A DNA stretch of 25,788 nucleotides, from NCBI GenBank assembly GCA_040005235.1, contig JBDTZG010000072.1, positions 1-25,788 on the forward strand, read 5' to 3'. The notes below the pieces were generated by a model. It ran no database searches. It was given only the letters and a program-made list of their open reading frames with translations, and was not told the DNA's origin. The position numbers and the translations under genes were made by a program. This DNA comes from Acidobacteriota bacterium. Its GTDB lineage: Bacteria; Acidobacteriota; Thermoanaerobaculia; Multivoradales; UBA5704. Numbering within the stretch: position 1 is the stretch's first letter; each line of letters begins with the position of its first letter. Of the stretch, positions 15,560 through 25,759 are shown one piece after another.

Positions 15560-15653
15560 GGCCTCTCCCTGGGACCGCCGAGCACCAGCTCGGCACGAGG
15601 CGGCGCAAACCCCAAGGCGGCCGATCAGGTGCCCGGCGATCCCGGGAAAGGCC
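15560..15653 (+). repeat. REP doublet (REPIN-like), family A copy 1, right arm degenerate
   Basis: GGGACCGCCGAGCACCAGCTCGGC (15571-15594), spacer ACGAGGCGGCGCAAAC..., right arm GCCGATCAGGTGCCCGGCGATCCCGGGAAAGGCC (15620-15653). Confidence 0.85.
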
Positions 15654-16510: not shown

Positions 16511-16602
16511 GCCGTTCCCGGGACCGCCGAGCACCAGCTCGGCTGTTTTTAAGTTTGCGCCGCCTCGATGCCGAGCTGGTGCTCGGCGTACCCGGGAACG
16601 GC
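16511..16602 (-). repeat. REP doublet (REPIN-like), family A copy 2, opposite orientation
   Basis: 33-bp arms 16511-16543 and 16570-16602 with 2 mismatches; the spacer reverse complement ATCGAGGCGGCGCAAACTTAAAAACA matches the other copies. Confidence 0.9.
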
Positions 16603-20023: not shown

Positions 20024-20139
20024 ATCCCTTCTCCCCCGGGGTTAGCGCTCAGTTCGAAGCCACAACGTCGCATCGAGCGGCGAACACGCCGGCGAGGTCC
20101 GCCTCCGCGGAAAGCGGCGCGGGCGCCGTGCCGGTCTGC

Positions 20140-20231
20140 GCTTTTCCCTGGGACCGCCGAGCACCAGCTCGGCACCGAGGCGGCGCCAACGGCAAGCCCA
20201 GCTGAGCTGGTGCTCGGTGGTCCAGCGAAGC
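20140..20231 (+). repeat. REP doublet (REPIN-like), family A copy 3, degenerate
   Basis: GGGACCGCCGAGCACCAGCTCGGC (20150-20173), spacer ACCGAGGCGGCGCCAAC..., right arm GCTGAGCTGGTGCTCGGTGGTCC (20201-20223). Confidence 0.87.
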
Positions 20232-20300: not shown

Positions 20301-20411
20301 ATCTATGGATTCGATATGGAATCACCGACAACATAATCATCCTGGCACGACCGAGCGACATTCACGGCATCCGGTAGGGCGGGAATCTTGACAGAGCGGG
20401 GGAGGTGTACC

Positions 20412-21278
20412 TTGACCCAGACGATGAAGTTGGCCGTGGGTGGACGGCTGCTCGACCAGCTGTTCGCGGCGGCGGCGGTGGATGAGGTTTCGACCTCCGA
20501 GGTGATCCGGCGGATCTTGTGGTGCCACTTCGAGGCCCGGAAGGGGACCGAACCGGGCCCGATCGGGGCCGAAGAGGGCCCCAACTCGGCCCCTCGCCCC
20601 GGGGATTCAGGGCACCGCTCCTCTTCCCTCCCCACACCCCTCCCATCACCTCCAGGTAGAGGTTACCCACAAGAGACAAAAGCAAAAGCAAAAGCAGAAG
20701 CAACAGCTTCTGCTCTCTTAGATCTTCTAAGTACAGACTCTACCGGGCGCGTACGCGAGGCGCCCGCGCACGTGAGGCCAGGGTCCGCCGGGGGGGCCGA
20801 CGCGGACCCCGTGCTCTGGCTTCCGTGCCGGGCGTCCCGCGCGGGGGACTCCGCCGCCTGGGGCCTGTCGCAGGGCCAGATCGAACGTTGGCAGGCGGTG
20901 TTCCCGGGCCTCGACGTGCTCGGCGAGGCCCGCAAAGCCCAGGCCTGGCTGGAGGCCAATCCCGGGCGCTGGAAGACCCCTCGCGGCATTGGCAGGTTTC
21001 TGTTCTCGTGGCTCGAACGGGCCAACGACGGCGGCCGGTTCGGTGGGCGCGAGGCTCCGGCCGGGCGCGGCGGCGGCGGCTGGAAACCTGGGATCCCGGG
21101 GATCGACAAGCCGGCGCCGCCGCCCAAAGGATCGCTCAAGGAGGCCTACGGCCGCGAATCGTTCGAGGAGTGGGAGGCGGAGCTGCGGGCCGGCATCCCC
21201 GAGCCGGAGGAGCTGGCGAAGTGCCTCCGCGACTTAGAGGCGATCCGCCTCGGTTGGGAGGCGCGGCATGGCGCGTGA
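20412..21278 (+). CDS. Phage-type replication initiator-like protein with an N-terminal RHH-like segment
   Basis: C-terminal WQAVFPGLDVLGEARKAQAWLEANPGRWKTPRGIGRFLFSWLERA resembles phage initiator C-termini; overlaps a DnaC-like gene; TTG 20412 follows GGAGGT (alternative starts 20388 and 20424). Confidence 0.65.
   Translation: MTQTMKLAVGGRLLDQLFAAAAVDEVSTSEVIRRILWCHFEARKGTEPGPIGAEEGPNSAPRPGDSGHRSSSLPTPLPSPPGRGYPQETKAKAKAEATASALLDLLSTDSTGRVREAPAHVRPGSAGGADADPVLWLPCRASRAGDSAAWGLSQGQIERWQAVFPGLDVLGEARKAQAWLEANPGRWKTPRGIGRFLFSWLERANDGGRFGGREAPAGRGGGGWKPGIPGIDKPAPPPKGSLKEAYGRESFEEWEAELRAGIPEPEELAKCLRDLEAIRLGWEARHGA
20655..20757. other. Candidate replication origin embedded in the initiator gene
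   Basis: AT-rich tract with CAAAAG x3 plus CAGAAG and CAACAG, hairpin AGCAGAAGC-AACA-GCTTCTGCT, CTTAGA-TCT-TCTAAG, outer GGTAGAG/CTCTACC and palindrome CGCGTACGCG. Confidence 0.45.
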
Positions 21279-22071
21279 TCTCGGCGGCCTGTTGGGAGGG
21301 GTCGAGCGGCGCCTGGCCGTCCTGCCGGCCGAAGAGCTGGCCGCCCGGGAGCGCCCGCGCTGCGCCTTGCCGCCCGGGCAGCACTGCTCGTCGGGCTGGC
21401 ACTGGCGGCAGGACGGCGGGCAGGGCACCGCGTTTTCCCGCTGCGGGCGAGCCACCGCGGCGCGGGCCGAAGCGGCGGCGGCGGAGATCCCGGGCGGGCA
21501 GACTTTCGAGAGCTTCGAGCGGCTGCGCGAGAACGACGCCTACCTCGCGGCCCGGCGGTGGGCGGACGCGGAGAGTGTCGGAGGGGAGGGAGGGATGGGA
21601 GGGGTGGGCCGCCGGACGCTCGCCCTTCTGCGGCCGGAGACCGTGGCCGAGACCACCGGCTGCGGCAAGACCCACCTGCTGCGCGCGGCGGCGCGCGCCC
21701 TGGTCCGGACCGGGCGCTGGGTCGAGTACGTGACGGCCCCCGACCTCACGCGGACGGTGCGCGGGCGGGCGCTGTTCGACGGCGCGGAGCGCGGCGCGGC
21801 CGAGATCGCGGTGCGCAAGTGGCACCGCTGCGATGCGCTGATCCTCGACGACCTAGGCCAGGAGGAGACCGCGGCGCCGATCACCGCCGCGTTCGTGGTG
21901 GGGCTGCTGGACGAGCGGGAGGGCGAGCGGCTCGCCTTCGCCACCAACGCGAGCGAGCGGGAGCTGGCGCTGCGCTTCGGCGTGCCCCTGGTCTCGCGGC
22001 TGCTCGGCGGCGCGGACGTTCCCTCGCTGCGCGGCACCGACTACCGACGGCTGTACCGGGAGGCGGTATGA
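21268..22071 (+). CDS. DnaC/IstB-like AAA+ ATPase (helicase loader-like)
   Basis: TFESF, Walker A variant ETTGCGKTHL, Walker B LILDDLGQE, ATN and RFG..LVSRL; N-terminal Cys/His cluster. Confidence 0.82.
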   Translation: MARDLGGLLGGVERRLAVLPAEELAARERPRCALPPGQHCSSGWHWRQDGGQGTAFSRCGRATAARAEAAAAEIPGGQTFESFERLRENDAYLAARRWADAESVGGEGGMGGVGRRTLALLRPETVAETTGCGKTHLLRAAARALVRTGRWVEYVTAPDLTRTVRGRALFDGAERGAAEIAVRKWHRCDALILDDLGQEETAAPITAAFVVGLLDEREGERLAFATNASERELALRFGVPLVSRLLGGADVPSLRGTDYRRLYREAV

Positions 22072-22219
22072 GCAAGGCCGGGACCCACGGCTGCGCGAGG
22101 GTATCGCCAAGGAATCTACGGATTCTATTTTTGAGTATGAGACGGACTGACCTGAGTTGAGTTAAGATTGATCCTGCACATCCCGTGCGGACTGGAGCGA
22201 AGCTCGGAGGTTGGCGTTC

Positions 22220-22468
22220 ATGGCTGCGAGAGTGCTGGCCTGGCGGTTTCCCTCGAAGGCAACTTCCCCCGAGCGGGAAGCCCTCGATACGCTCGTCGTC
22301 TGCTCGGTCATGGAAACGATGGAGCTGTATTTCGAAGAAGATCCGGTCCGGCCCGAGGACCCGACCAACCACCTCCTCGCGGGCCTGCTGCGCGCCGCCC
22401 GTTGGGAGATCGAGGCGCTTATCCTCAAAGCCCTCCGCGACGGGTCGGACGACGATGCGCAGAGCTGA
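22220..22468 (+). CDS. Hypothetical protein (82 aa)
   Basis: GGAGG SD before ATG 22220; plausible helical, acidic composition. Confidence 0.55.
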   Translation: MAARVLAWRFPSKATSPEREALDTLVVCSVMETMELYFEEDPVRPEDPTNHLLAGLLRAARWEIEALILKALRDGSDDDAQS

Positions 22469-22496
22469 CCCGCGGCTGTCGGCGGATTAAACCGCG

Positions 22497-23159
22497 TTAC
22501 GGAGTCAACGCGCGGCCTTTCAAGACGGCGCTCTCCGAGACTCGAAACACCATCTCCATCTGCGCCGCGTTGTCCAGGCTGCCGCTCAAGCGTTCGACAA
22601 ACGCCGCCGCGCTCTGGAAGATCGAGGATAGTTCTGCGGCGGAGGCGTCCTCGGCGAGGTTTTCGAGCGCGCGCAAGACTCCATCGCCTCCTCGGGCTTC
22701 GTTCCGCACCGCCTCGAAGGCTTCCGAGCGTGCCGCCCGGCTGACCCGCGCGAGGCGTTCCGTATTGGTCAACGACCGCGGCGCGGGGCTGGCCGGCCGG
22801 CTCGTCGGCGCCTCCTCCTGGGTGTAGCGCGCTCTGCGCAGGGCGCGGCGCAGCTCCAGGGCCGGAACCTCGAACAGCGCCGCCACATGCGCCGCGGAGC
22901 GGCAGTGGCTTTCGAGCGCCTGCTTGTTCGCGGGGGTCGGCGTGAAGGCGTCACAGCACGGCCGGTGCTCGTTCGCGGAGGGAAACCAGAGCCCCTGGCG
23001 CCACTCGCCCTCCGGCGCCTGCCCCCGCGACTCCCGGGCCAAGAAGGCCTCCAGGGCCAGGCGAAGGCGCCCCTCGTTCGCGGGCGGCCCTAGAGCCCCG
23101 TGCTCCGGCGTTTCCCCCAGGTCTTCGAGGTCGGATTCTTGGATGCGTACCAGATTCAT
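22497..23159 (-). CDS. Hypothetical protein with a putative Zn-binding CC...HCRxxxH motif
   Basis: AGGAGG SD; PEGEW..GLWFPS..E...CC....P.......LESHCRSAAHVA motif followed by a helical C-terminus. Confidence 0.72.
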   Translation of the reverse strand: MNLVRIQESDLEDLGETPEHGALGPPANEGRLRLALEAFLARESRGQAPEGEWRQGLWFPSANEHRPCCDAFTPTPANKQALESHCRSAAHVAALFEVPALELRRALRRARYTQEEAPTSRPASPAPRSLTNTERLARVSRAARSEAFEAVRNEARGGDGVLRALENLAEDASAAELSSIFQSAAAFVERLSGSLDNAAQMEMVFRVSESAVLKGRALTP

Positions 23160-23306
23160 CGGTCTATGTCCTCCTGCGGGGCAGCTGTTCTATTCCATAC
23201 AGTGCATCCCGGGCGCCAATGCGGGTCGAAATGGGGAGAGTGGTGGCGAATTCTCTCGCCTCTTCTCGCTTCGTCGCGTTCTCGACGTTCCCGAAGCATA
23301 CCCCAG

Positions 23307-23328
23307 AATGCCTACTAAAGTAGACATT
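23307..23328. promoter_or_regulatory. Imperfect 22-bp palindrome in an AT-richer divergent intergenic region
   Basis: AATGCCTACT-AA-AGTAGACATT, 1 mismatch between arms. Confidence 0.4.
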
Positions 23329-23487
23329 TCCCACCCAAGACGCGGAAGATGGAATCATGAAGGGCCTAATTTCAGGGAAAATACTGAACTTTCTCTCGAT
23401 TCCATAGACTTCTCGGATTAAGTCCTGTACAAGGGGTATGTGAGACGGCATTACGCCGTCGCGCCGACCGTAAAGGAGAAGCACAGC

Positions 23488-23844
23488 ATGGCCGCGAAGA
23501 AGTCGAGCCTCAATGCGCAACTCGCCGAGCAGCCCCCGACCCAGCTCAAAGCCGAGCGGATCCAGTTCGCCCTCGCCACCCTTCCCGGATGGGCCCTCGG
23601 CCCGCCGCGCCAGAGGGTGGAGCGCTTCTTCCGCCTGGCGGCGGAGGGAGAGGCGGATCGTTTCGTCCCGTTCGTCCTCGCCACCTGCCGCAAGGCGGGA
23701 GCCAACGTCGAGATGTCCGTGCAGGAAAGCCTTGTGGTCGTCCGCCTCGGCGGAGCCAACGGCGTGATGGCAGCCGATCTGTCGGCGGCGCAATCGCTCA
23801 GTGAGTCCCGCTGGGCGTACGCGGCCGCCGCCACGGCGGCGTGA
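23488..23844 (+). CDS. Degenerate pterin-4a-carbinolamine dehydratase (PCD/DCoH)-like protein
   Basis: AAGGAG SD before ATG 23488; LKAERIQ..LATLPGWAL...VERFF...A..FV..V...VVVRL...GV..AD...A..L follows the PCD pattern but lacks the HHP motif. Confidence 0.6.
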   Translation: MAAKKSSLNAQLAEQPPTQLKAERIQFALATLPGWALGPPRQRVERFFRLAAEGEADRFVPFVLATCRKAGANVEMSVQESLVVVRLGGANGVMAADLSAAQSLSESRWAYAAAATAA

Positions 23845-23849
23845 CCGTC

Positions 23850-24126
23850 GAAAGCGGCTTTCCGCCGCTGGATTCGGGCGTCCGGCGCGGAATCCGGGAT
23901 GCAGAAGGAAAAACGCGCGATTCCTTGACGTAGAGCGGCTATCCGAGACTGCTTGCCGCTCGCAGCCGCCGCAACGTCGCTCTTCGCGAGCGATAGCGGC
24001 TTTCGAGGAGCAATGCCAGCTATCCCGTTCTCGATAGCGGGGTTCCACGGGCGATGGCGGCATCCAGAGCTGGATAGCCGCTCTCGAAGACCGCAGAGCC
24101 GCCGTCGACAGTCGATAGCAGCTTTA
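23850..24126. repeat. Phased array of degenerate 13-bp palindromes (consensus GATAGC-N-GCTATC), 20-21 bp period
   Basis: Clear units at 23850, 23931, 23992, 24012, 24033, 24053, 24073, 24094 and 24114; weaker units at ~23871, 23890, 23911, 23951 and 23972. Confidence 0.75.
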
Positions 24127-24265
24127 CGGGGCCGTTCGGCGTCGTCTTCGGCGGATTTTCGCGGAATCCGCCGGAAGAACGATTGCCGCGCAGGAAAGTG
24201 AAGCTACAACCGGGCCGACCGTGATCGCGCCCGGAATCTGTCACCCAACTTGGAGGATATAAACG

Positions 24266-24655
24266 ATGAAAGCGAGCTCGTACTCCGACAAGATCGACGC
24301 CTTCCAGAACACGGTCAACAACCTCGAACCGGACCTCCCGAAGTATCCCGGGGCGGCTGACATCTTCGACGAGATGAAGGTGCTTCTCGCCGAACTGCGG
24401 CCCGCGCACGCTGCGGTGGAATCGCATCGCGGCAGCCAACGCGTCGCGGTTCAGATGCGTCGGGATCTGGCGGTCCGCGGCGTCCAGGTCCACCGCCGTC
24501 TGTCGGCGCTGGTCGCCGCTCATATCGGCTTCGCCAATCCGGTTCTCGCCACCTACGGGATCACCCCGGAAAACAACGCGAATCGGAGGGGCCGGCGCTC
24601 GAAGAAGGAGCTGGCAGCGAAGAAGGCGGCAGAGGCGCAGCTGGCCGCCGCCTGA
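24266..24655 (+). CDS. Small helical hypothetical protein with a basic C-terminal tail (129 aa)
   Basis: GGAGG SD; amphipathic helices, then G..NPVL..YGI.P and the RRGRRSKKELAAKK tail; followed by a terminator. Confidence 0.82.
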   Translation: MKASSYSDKIDAFQNTVNNLEPDLPKYPGAADIFDEMKVLLAELRPAHAAVESHRGSQRVAVQMRRDLAVRGVQVHRRLSALVAAHIGFANPVLATYGITPENNANRRGRRSKKELAAKKAAEAQLAAA

Positions 24656-24678
24656 TCCGTTGAAGTGAGTCCCGTCCC

Positions 24679-24711
24679 GGGGGCGGTCCGCAAGGGCCGC
24701 CCCCCTTTTTT
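24679..24711 (+). terminator. Rho-independent terminator
   Basis: GGGGGCGGTCC-GCAA-GGGCCGCCCCC stem with GNRA loop, followed by T7. Confidence 0.88.
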
Positions 24712-24736
24712 GGGGGGAGAACCACGCTTTCGCTTC

Positions 24737-24820
24737 TCCCCGGGACCGCCGAGCACCAGCTCGGCACCGAGGCGGCGCAAATGTAAAAGCAGCCGAGCTG
24801 GTGCTCGGCGGTCCCGGGGA
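24737..24820 (+). repeat. REP doublet (REPIN-like), family A copy 4, upstream of the RAYT
   Basis: Perfect 29-bp inverted arms 24737-24765 and 24792-24820; 26-nt spacer ACCGAGGCGGCGCAAATGTAAAAGCA. Confidence 0.93.
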
Positions 24821-24979
24821 AAAGCCTTTCTCCTTCGGACGGCGTCCTTGAATGCCTCAAGACTCGTGGACCAAGCCACCTCTAGCGAAGCAAACCGATT
24901 GCGAGAGGGCGGATTGGTCTAACGATTCGGCCGGTCCCGGGGAAAGCACGCTTGAGTCGTCGTAGAATCGGCGCAGAAT

Positions 24980-25645
24980 ATGTCGATGCAGAAAGAGTCC
25001 TTCGTAACGCCGTCACCGGACGCTGAGGCTTCCGATCCGCTGCCCGGCGTGCCCGTCCACCCCGGCTGGACTTCGCGAGGGTACCTCCCTCACTTCGACC
25101 AGCCGGGCCTTCTCCAATCCCTAACCTTCCGCCTCGCTGACTCATTACCCCAAGACCAACTCCGCCAGTTGGAACGCGAGCTGGAGCAACAGCCGAAAAC
25201 CGCCCAAGACCTTGCGCGCCGCAAACGCCTGGAGAGCTGGCTCGATGCGGGGATGGGCTGCTCGGCCCTTAGGCATCCCCAGGTGGCGGAGACGCTGGAA
25301 AACTCTCTGTTCCGCTTCGACGGCTCGCGCTACCGGCTGCTCGCCTGGTGCATCATGCCCAACCACGTCCACTCCCTGATCGAGCCGATCACGCCGCTCG
25401 CGGGCATCGTTCAATCCTGGAAGTCCTATACCGGCCGGTGGGCGCTCGCCCACAACGCCGAGCTTCGCCTTGGCATCTCCGGCAAAGCCTTCTGGATGCG
25501 CGATTATTGGGACCGCTTCATCCGCGACGGCAAGCACTACCACCAGGTGATCCATTACATCCACCAGAACCCGGTCAAAGCCGGTCTCTGCGCCACCCCG
25601 CCCGCTTGGCCTTGGTCGAGCGCCCGTTTCCCGCCCGAACCCTGA
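24980..25645 (+). mobile_element. rayT: REP-associated tyrosine transposase (RAYT/TnpA-REP, HUH Y1 family)
   Basis: SRGYLPHFD, TFRLADSLP, HUH motif IMPNHVH, FWMRDYWDRFIRD, catalytic YIHQNPVKAGL, WPWSS; flanked on both sides by REP doublets. Confidence 0.92.
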
Positions 25646-25675: not shown

Positions 25676-25759
25676 TTCCCGGGACCGCCGAGCACCAGCT
25701 CGGCACCGAGGCGGCGCAAACGTAAAAGCAGCCGAGCTGGTGCTCGGCGGTCCCGGGAA
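25676..25759 (+). repeat. REP doublet (REPIN-like), family A copy 5, downstream of the RAYT
   Basis: Perfect 29-bp inverted arms 25676-25704 and 25731-25759; the 26-nt spacer differs from copy 4 by one base. Confidence 0.93.

Follow-up and report, generated by a model that had tools for sequence, protein, structure and literature searches.

Helically phased palindrome arrays recur beside genes for a small helical protein in an uncultured group of Acidobacteria

The window analysed here, a stretch of 25,788 nucleotides that makes up one entire 25.8-kb contig of a draft Acidobacteriota genome (6.2 Mb, 66% G+C), carries an array of short palindromes about 20 bp apart upstream of a gene for a small helical protein of 129 amino acids (aa). 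The arrayed site and the small protein gene form a recurring, apparently undescribed pairing in an uncultured group of soil Acidobacteria, and comparison of many loci points to the 129-aa-type gene as the constant partner of the arrays. We lean towards reading the array as the cis half of a two-part, often three-part, module in which dimers of the 129-aa protein would coat the helically phased cores. No description of these arrays was found in the literature, which was searched at title and abstract level.

The non-coding gap that holds the array begins five bases past the stop codon of the upstream open reading frame (ORF), as a first-pass annotation of the window had stated, and each of the eleven 13-mers that the annotation listed upstream of the 129-aa gene was found at its given coordinate. 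The spacings from 23931 onwards, when re-derived, are again 20, 21, 20, 20, 21, 20, 20, 21, and 20 bp, and the outlying site at 23850 does fall on the common grid claimed for it (264 bp over 13 intervals, or 20.3 bp). Three grid positions between them (23870-23930) hold no recognisable site. Of the twelve bases that the consensus specifies, the ten sites beginning with 23931 match 10, 8, 6, 11, 9, 9, 8, 11, 8, and 10, respectively, and the site at 23850 matches ten. The array sites average 3.6 self-complementary pairs out of six, against 1.68 for all 13-mers of the window.

We compared the autocorrelation of 23926-24130 with that of 500 dinucleotide-preserving shuffles at lags 1-80. Lags 20, 41, and 61 gave z-scores of 3.4, 4.6, and 5.9, respectively, and no other lag exceeded 3. 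The proposal that these are helically phased, dyad-symmetric sites is thus supported by spacing, autocorrelation, and self-complementarity. Tandem Repeats Finder reported no repeat in the array because the units are too diverged; the array is a phased set of diverged sites and not a clean tandem repeat. The annotation had also described linkers of 7-8 bp that are unrelated to each other while the spacing is kept, and we likewise find that the periodic signal arises from the 13-mer cores and not from the linkers. At lag 61, core positions are 58% identical (53/91) and linker positions 31% (16/51), the latter being the linker level at every lag tested. Since cores are so much more alike than linkers at this lag, the array is not a decayed 61-bp duplication, the outcome that the first-pass annotation had itself named as a refutation. 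The array of the window is nonetheless a degenerate version; its orthologous counterparts in sister genomes consist of 12-16 units that are near perfect.

The link between array and gene emerges from the relatives of the 129-aa gene. All nine loci of close orthologues (at least 70% identity), spread over seven genomes, have an array of the window palindrome upstream, with 4-16 sites per locus (at least 10/12 bases) located at about -93 to -433 of the start codon. The next paralogue class, represented by four loci at 62-67% identity, has no window-class site; three of the four instead have arrays, again at 20 bp, of a related palindrome whose two half-sites have changed in concert.

Within this genome, a hidden Markov model (HMM) of the family identified 28 distinct loci. 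In the 700 bp upstream of the gene, eighteen of these show periodicity with z > 5.5 at 20, 21, 22, 42, or 62 bp, compared with 22 of 600 random 700-bp windows that reach z > 5.5 at such lags. Among a first set of twenty family loci, thirteen were periodic upstream and none downstream. The cores differ from paralogue to paralogue, whereas a period of 20-21 bp or 42 bp is kept for any core sequence and length; a common period across unrelated cores fits a helical constraint of B-DNA and is hard to explain for RNA. Orthologue, paralogue, and upstream/downstream comparisons therefore agree in tying the array to the neighbouring gene, which the first-pass annotation had picked as the obvious binder. 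At first, seeing that the other thirty arrays of this class in the genome have no paralogue beside them, we took the 129-aa gene to have nothing to do with the arrays; the orthologue and paralogue loci overturned that reading.

The genomes of the genus contain 23-36 paralogous modules each. All seven genus genomes with arrays of the window class have a close orthologue of the 129-aa protein, and in the array-less genome (G005, 85% complete) the best match has only 28% identity. Beyond the genus, a sample of 30 other genomes of the taxonomic family showed the protein family in 26, representing nine of eleven genera, and the best loci from these other genera show periodicity upstream in 8/19 cases and downstream in 2/19. 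No conserved neighbours were found at paralogue loci besides the two genes described below, one resembling pterin-4a-carbinolamine dehydratase (PCD) and one coding for a protein of 220 aa.

The array is not a private local element: the same palindrome forms arrays throughout this genome. The window-class palindrome (a 13-mer with G or C at its centre) occurs 425 times at a stringency of at least 10/12 bases, and chaining sites of at least 9/12 by their spacing yields 31 arrays, thirty of which lie away from any family gene. Several are near perfect, with 10-13 units at exactly 20 bp, an intact 13-mer, and a varying 7-bp linker. Across 194 grid units from the arrays of this genome, the majority base is present in 57-94% of units at core positions and in 33-64% at linker positions, though these figures carry a partial bias, the core having been the means of finding the arrays. 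Clean arrays are dominated by perfect palindromes. The arrays occupy intergenic DNA, often right behind a stop codon or where two genes converge. The genes next to them are unrelated housekeeping genes; when the genes flanking the 31 arrays were compared all against all by blastp, two small clusters only and no conserved neighbour family emerged.

A two-unit search pattern allowing up to two mismatches matched six of the seven other genus genomes (6-65 matches per genome on one strand) and had zero matches in the seventh, G005. None of 34 genomes from other genera of the same family and order contained it, and the reversed control pattern had no match in any genome except for a single match in one. 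An exact search of 185,579 species, each represented by one genome, yielded six metagenome-assembled genomes and no others; their labels were Thermoanaerobaculia or Holophagales. The window array class is restricted to the genus.

Several further observations concern the arrays of this genome. Some stand at contig ends, where the repeats fragment the assembly. One near-perfect array has an IS1-like transposase gene 29 bp away (C75:101-1199, C113:6498-7370), and only one of the three IS1-like copies in the genome is next to an array. Four arrays are hybrids (C8:129729-130161, C59:35738-35910, C82:41315-41607, and C83:100355-100787), with one half-site of the window class and the other matching the half-site of a sister paralogue class from another genus genome; they look like intermediates or targets of two proteins. 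Some of the random 700-bp windows hit strong 40/42-bp periodic tracts apart from the HMM-found family (C88:653, C134:23865, C12:25487, and C39:4042), and the genome may hold further array classes or other partner proteins.

The 129-aa protein belongs to no Pfam, NCBIfam, or PHROG family. A search of 1.84 billion proteins identified 548 representatives of its relatives at E ≤ 0.001, nearly all of 110-165 residues, and the named ones are hypothetical proteins of Thermoanaerobaculia/Acidobacteriota. Its gene has a third-position G+C fraction (GC3) of 0.82. The AlphaFold2 (AF2) model, with a mean predicted local distance difference test (pLDDT) score of 84, is a long helical hairpin with helices at 6-26, 31-87, 92-97, and 113-128; the short helix 92-97 lies within a conserved G-F-x-N-P-x-L-x-x-Y-G motif and is followed by a low-confidence basic tail with RRGRR. 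R65, R77, and R78 are among the conserved residues. Structural searches gave little to compare it with. Foldseek against the PDB had no match at E < 1, a wide VIA-align search found generic helical hairpins only (Z < 7), a profile search of PDB sequences returned nothing meaningful, and an Atlas search returned only generic helical proteins or unnamed Acidobacteriota clusters. The model has no N-terminal strand, and by this prediction the protein would be neither a ribbon-helix-helix nor a helix-turn-helix protein.

The suggestion that the binder is dimeric received support from modelling. The homodimer scored 0.63, compared with 0.00 for the best of three controls, and the mark was reached in calibration by 20 of 30 proteins solved as pairs and one of 23 solved as single chains, a calibration that holds only roughly here as our own alignment was used. 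Runs agree in at least 90% of contacts, with a partner pLDDT of at least 83, and the modelled interface runs antiparallel along both helices, much like a four-helix bundle.

The mechanism that we favour can be put as follows. A full module would consist, in order, of a gene with the PCD fold (also the fold of DCoH), a phased palindrome array, and the gene for the small helical hairpin. The 129-aa protein would assemble into an antiparallel four-helix-bundle dimer with two flexible basic tails, and one dimer would read one dyad-symmetric core of 13-15 bp. With cores every 20-21 bp, or about two helical turns, dimers would be aligned on one face of the DNA and could form a cooperative nucleoprotein filament just upstream of their own promoter. 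Such a filament would probably autoregulate the 129-aa gene and act as a landing pad. Each paralogue has its own core, and the window class has also spread to some thirty other intergenic sites, either as homogeneous 20-bp arrays or as truncated module copies that retain the array and neither gene. We infer that the binder is the 129-aa protein, and not the DCoH-like protein or an unlinked factor.

A number of observations weigh against this mechanism. Three structural comparisons (Foldseek against the PDB, VIA-align, and the PDB sequence profile) leave the 129-aa protein without a recognised DNA-binding fold. The window array is degenerate, with only five of eleven sites at 10/12 or better, and the window locus itself falls below the z threshold of 5.5 in the 700-bp test (z 4.5-4.7, rising to 5.9 in 500 bp). 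Ten of the 28 family loci are under this threshold, and two of them (C10 and C123) have a PCD-like gene directly upstream. Thirty of the 31 window-class arrays in this genome adjoin no family member. The array folds as a single strand with a z-score of -4.0, which is expected of any run of palindromes, and it may have a role as RNA or single-stranded DNA. Finally, gene and array are inherited together, and common descent plus concerted evolution could mimic their matched divergence.

The gene directly upstream of the array also bears on who the binder is. The first-pass annotation had called it PCD-like and treated it as a neighbour; the fold assignment stands, whereas the gene is more than a mere neighbour, being part of the module at 17 of 30 genus loci, where it is found upstream of 129-like genes. 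Its ORF is open from a GTG at 23440, with the likely start at the ATG at 23488, which is preceded by AAGGAG and corresponds to the nearly invariant Met17 of the family alignment. The Pfam family Pterin_4a scores 24.1 bits, under the 26-bit cut-off. A profile search of PDB sequences matched 2ebb (E 3.6e-6), and Foldseek aligned the AF2 model (pLDDT 75) with the same structure at E 2.8e-5, a TM-score of 0.83, and a root-mean-square deviation of 1.6 over 90 columns. At E ≤ 0.001 there are fourteen matching PCD/DCoH chains, and the model has the predicted beta-beta-alpha-beta-beta-alpha fold of the dehydratases and DCoH. An HHP motif and a later histidine define dehydratase catalysis. HMM alignments with two solved dehydratases, 2ebb and 3jst, set non-histidine profile positions against the HHP residues and against the later residue, which is His in 3jst and Trp in 2ebb. 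A DCoH fold without catalytic histidines points to a non-enzymatic binding role.

This gene leads to the strongest competing account, in which the array is bound by something else (the DCoH/PCD-fold protein, a complex of both proteins, or an unlinked genus-specific regulator) and the 129-aa gene is only a target. The order of PCD-like gene, array, and 129-like gene recurs at C52 and across the C59/C127 junction, the predicted binding role would suit such a factor, and the solved DCoH, whose complex 1f93 is among the fold matches of the PCD-like protein, binds the helical dimerisation domain of HNF-1; the lack of a classical DNA-binding fold in the 129-aa model fits as well. The counts tell against it. 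This genome has six full-length PCD-like genes only, which makes the gene an accessory part, against eighteen 129-like loci with an array; only three array-bearing modules have a DCoH-like gene, and most arrays have none nearby. The pairs of PCD-like and 129-like genes at C10 and C123 lack an array, and a separate unlinked factor for each of about twenty different cores would be unparsimonious. We regard this account as unlikely. The module at the C59/C127 junction is itself split over two contig ends (C59:71528-71868 and C127:1-300) and comprises a PCD-like gene, a 21-bp array with a GAGCTGGCCCAG-type core, and a 129-like gene.

The array is also part of a larger repeated unit. A blastn search with 23300-24900 against the same genome found an element of about 0.5 kb at ten other places with 76-97% identity (on C18, C122, C118, where there are two, C49, C94, C105, C79, C45, and C85). 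It spans the last ~50 codons of the upstream gene, the entire array, and the hairpin that follows. The left end varies between copies (23692-23830), each being cut elsewhere within the upstream gene, and the right end is common to them at about 24212. In the C18 and C94 copies the element is fused to the 3' end of a 129-aa-type gene, and window positions 24213-24546 (C18) or 24228-24615 (C94) are missing; this joint indicates that the copies are internally deleted duplicates of the whole module that have kept the array and lost both genes. Two public sequencing runs confirm the repeat independently: their contigs show 23715-24209 at 4-15 times the depth of the flanks, with breaks at 23702-23761 and 24211.

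Such copies raise the question of whether the arrays are simply selfish or neutral minisatellites, prone to slippage and tolerated in the leader of a fast-duplicating gene family, with palindromy kept by the amplification mechanism. Unit and copy number do vary widely, down to six and up to 65 two-unit matches per genome on one strand, many arrays sit at gene 3' ends or between convergent genes, and assemblies break at arrays, which then stand at contig ends. Recent slippage is suggested by higher-order repeats of 40/60 bp, the copy in the window is in decay, and the truncated module copies have kept the array and lost both genes. Neutral slippage, however, homogenises entire units, and here the cores are conserved while linkers differ within one array. 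Half-sites change jointly between classes, the 20-21 bp period is held across unrelated cores, and the arrays lie upstream of the family genes, with none downstream of the twenty compared. The mycobacterial MIRU-type minisatellites and BOX elements are likewise intergenic tandem repeats whose copy number varies between relatives, but they differ from the present arrays, in which conservation is confined to the dyad core, linkers are free, helical phase is kept, and the array class goes with the protein paralogue. On balance we find a minisatellite origin of this kind rather improbable.

A third account makes the array a single-stranded structure, either a string of RNA hairpins or DNA cruciforms, that controls termination or stability or sequesters a protein. 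The array lies between two co-oriented genes, so co-transcription is possible, it folds better than shuffles (-105 kcal/mol, z -4.0), and the palindrome extended to 15 bp could give a stem of 6 bp with a 3-nt loop. Yet the predicted fold pairs distant units and contains no local hairpins, a trivial outcome for repeated palindromes. Cores with two central bases (GGAA-NN-TTCC type) cannot form a stable hairpin, and arrays mixing two half-sites break the stem yet persist. A constant period of 20-21 bp has no rationale for RNA, and the Rfam gathering search of the whole window had no match. We consider a structural role of this sort very unlikely.

The coordinates of the array and the features around it are collected in Table 1.

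Table 1. Features of the module and its surroundings in the window
Feature	Position	Strand	Description
orf296 + DnaC/IstB-like AAA+ ATPase (21268-22071) + orf85	20388..22468	+	conserved block upstream of module
220-aa gene, no known family	22497..23159	-	divergent; travels with module
PCD/DCoH-fold gene	23488..23844	+	module's upstream gene
~0.5-kb multi-copy element	23692..24212	.	PCD-like gene 3' end + array + hairpin
phased array	23850..24126	.	eleven degenerate 13-mer palindromes, 20/20/21-bp grid
strong hairpin	24141..24183 (in fold)	+	between array and promoter region
inverted repeat CCGGGC-N13-GCCCGG	24210..24234	+	leader of 129-aa gene
ribosome-binding site GGAGGA	24252-24257		5' of 129-aa ORF
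129-aa gene	24266..24655	+	module's downstream gene; predicted helical hairpin, basic RRGRR tail; candidate array binder
intrinsic terminator of 129-aa gene	24679..24712	+	24679-24704 stem, then T run

The hairpin, the 129-aa gene, and the terminator that the first-pass annotation placed after the array are all present. The hairpin is kept in the copies of the element in this genome and is not found in the G007 and G002 orthologues. Further on, the inverted repeat in the leader also precedes the start codon of orthologous genes in G003, G002, and G007 and might act as an operator or promoter element, or as a hairpin of the 5' UTR. The terminator stem has eleven pairs, ten of them G-C.

On the other side, the 220-aa gene is found beside the module in seven of 30 loci, with paralogues beside other modules on C10, C127, and C126; its product has no PDB sequence match. 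The product of orf296 has neither a family in Pfam, NCBIfam, or PHROG nor a PDB sequence match, and the DnaC-like gene matches helicase loaders, including the phage helicase loader phrog_50 (E 4.9e-17). The order orf296, DnaC-like gene, orf85, orf220, PCD-like gene, array, and 129-aa gene is conserved by synteny in four other genus loci. The part from orf296 to the 220-aa gene (20388-23159) accompanies the module in different flanking contexts (G001, G002, G003:C15, and G007) and may be a remnant of an integrated element. At a further syntenic locus, G003:C40, tblastn found no match to orf296 or the DnaC-like gene, though the array and both module genes are present. The window contig otherwise bears ordinary chromosomal genes and its module locus is syntenic with G003:C40; it is not a plasmid or phage replicon, though it may include an integrated element. 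Scans of the ORFs in 20388-25645 against Pfam, NCBIfam, and PHROG recovered only the DnaC/IstB-like AAA+ and Y1 transposase families, and none of Rep, ParA, ParM, or TubZ.

Least probable of all is that the array serves an integrated element of plasmid or phage type, with replication genes (orf296 and the DnaC-like loader) just upstream, as its origin or partition site: the conservation of the whole block amid different flanks and the match to phage loaders speak for it, but this genome has one copy of each of the two genes and the other ~27 modules have neither, G003:C40 keeps the array and module genes without a match to either, the scanned interval has no replication or partition family of the kinds named, and the sites are dyad-symmetric and not direct iterons.

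A separate repeat system borders the module. A palindromic element of about 90 nt resembling repetitive extragenic palindromes (REP), at 24731-24826 and 25678-25757, flanks a Y1/IS200-like (RAYT-type) transposase gene at 24980-25645, with further copies in the window at 15561-15653, 16517-16596, and 20139-20223 and on more than 25 other contigs. It is a REPIN-RAYT-type system separate from the 20-bp arrays, and truncated module copies often abut a REP-like element.

Several known systems invite comparison. REP/BIME and REPIN-RAYT systems are built on intergenic palindromes, the repeat class being tied to one gene that it flanks (PMC3733652, PMC3184786). The resemblance lies in short, dispersed intergenic palindromes that are often found at gene 3' ends, are sometimes clustered, and belong to a class tied to one gene. 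The arrays differ in having perfect dyads of 13-15 bp in strict tandem phase of 20-21 bp, where those systems have imperfect hairpins of 20-40 bp, and in being linked to a 129-aa helical protein and not a Y1 transposase. The RAYT-type gene of the window is flanked by the ~90-nt repeat and not by array palindromes.

The arrays are also unlike CRISPR, having 13-bp cores and linkers of 7-8 bp where CRISPR repeats are 23-47 bp with unique spacers of similar size, and no cas families were found in the window ORFs scanned. Iterons are directly oriented, asymmetric units of 17-22 bp, whereas the present units are dyad-symmetric 13-15-mers. The operator OB of RK2 KorB, a member of the ParB family, is a 13-bp palindrome that shares the central nine bases of the window core. 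Both are 13-bp palindromes with a G or C centre, but OB sites are single and not arrayed, and the resemblance is probably a coincidence. A KorB/ParB-type array binder seems doubtful, as the genome's only two ordinary ParB_N homologues, on C107 and C103, both lie away from arrays.

The closest parallel is with plasmid centromeres and their small binders, such as parC/ParR of R1 and pSK41, parH/ParG of TP228, and sopC/SopB of F. Those centromeres similarly have about ten repeated sites in fixed helical phase next to the gene for their presumed coat, a small dimeric protein, and the array lies at the promoter of that gene. In the window, eleven sites on a 20.3-bp grid end 140 bp 5' of the 129-aa gene, and an array at its binder gene's promoter would be expected to mediate autoregulation. 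Several differences set the present case apart. It is chromosomal, with each of the many paralogous modules in a genome having its own core; the scanned interval has no ParA, ParM, or TubZ motor gene; the protein is predicted to be a long helical hairpin and not a ribbon-helix-helix or helix-turn-helix protein; and there are about thirty orphan arrays of one class. The first-pass annotation had likened the array to parC-type centromeres and iteron arrays, and these analogies hold for architecture only, as Pfam, NCBIfam, and PHROG place no partition NTPase or Rep initiator alongside it. By analogy, the architecture would work most like a plasmid centromere with its small binder, or like sopC/SopB of F, but it is a member of neither.

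DCoH and HNF-1 (1f93) offer a parallel for the upstream gene. Here too a gene with the DCoH fold stands beside that of a helical hairpin protein predicted to be dimeric, and the DNA sites are dyad-symmetric. The known system differs in being eukaryotic and in having a homeodomain as its DNA reader, while the bacterial pair has no recognisable DNA-binding domain and its interaction is hypothetical.

A bolder extension of the favoured mechanism, which we offer tentatively and think doubtful as a whole, is that of a chromosomal address system. Dozens of hairpin dimers with diverged specificities would each occupy their own arrays and form discrete nucleoprotein blocks, a catalytically dead DCoH-like cofactor would clamp some dimers as DCoH does HNF-1, and the ~30 colonised sites would be programmable, chromatin-like marks for the cell or for a selfish module.

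If the pairing is functional, the 129-aa proteins would be a new family that binds DNA sequence-specifically and has a fold with no earlier link to DNA recognition, and its paralogues with their arrays would be a ready-made set of paired protein and site variants for deducing a recognition code. The pairing would further mean that modules of array and binder, familiar from plasmid centromeres, can multiply on a chromosome into dozens of orthogonal copies, and a substantial part of the unexplained intergenic repeats that fragment assemblies of Thermoanaerobaculia would be accounted for. The DCoH-like partner would then be a bacterial parallel to a eukaryotic transcription cofactor.

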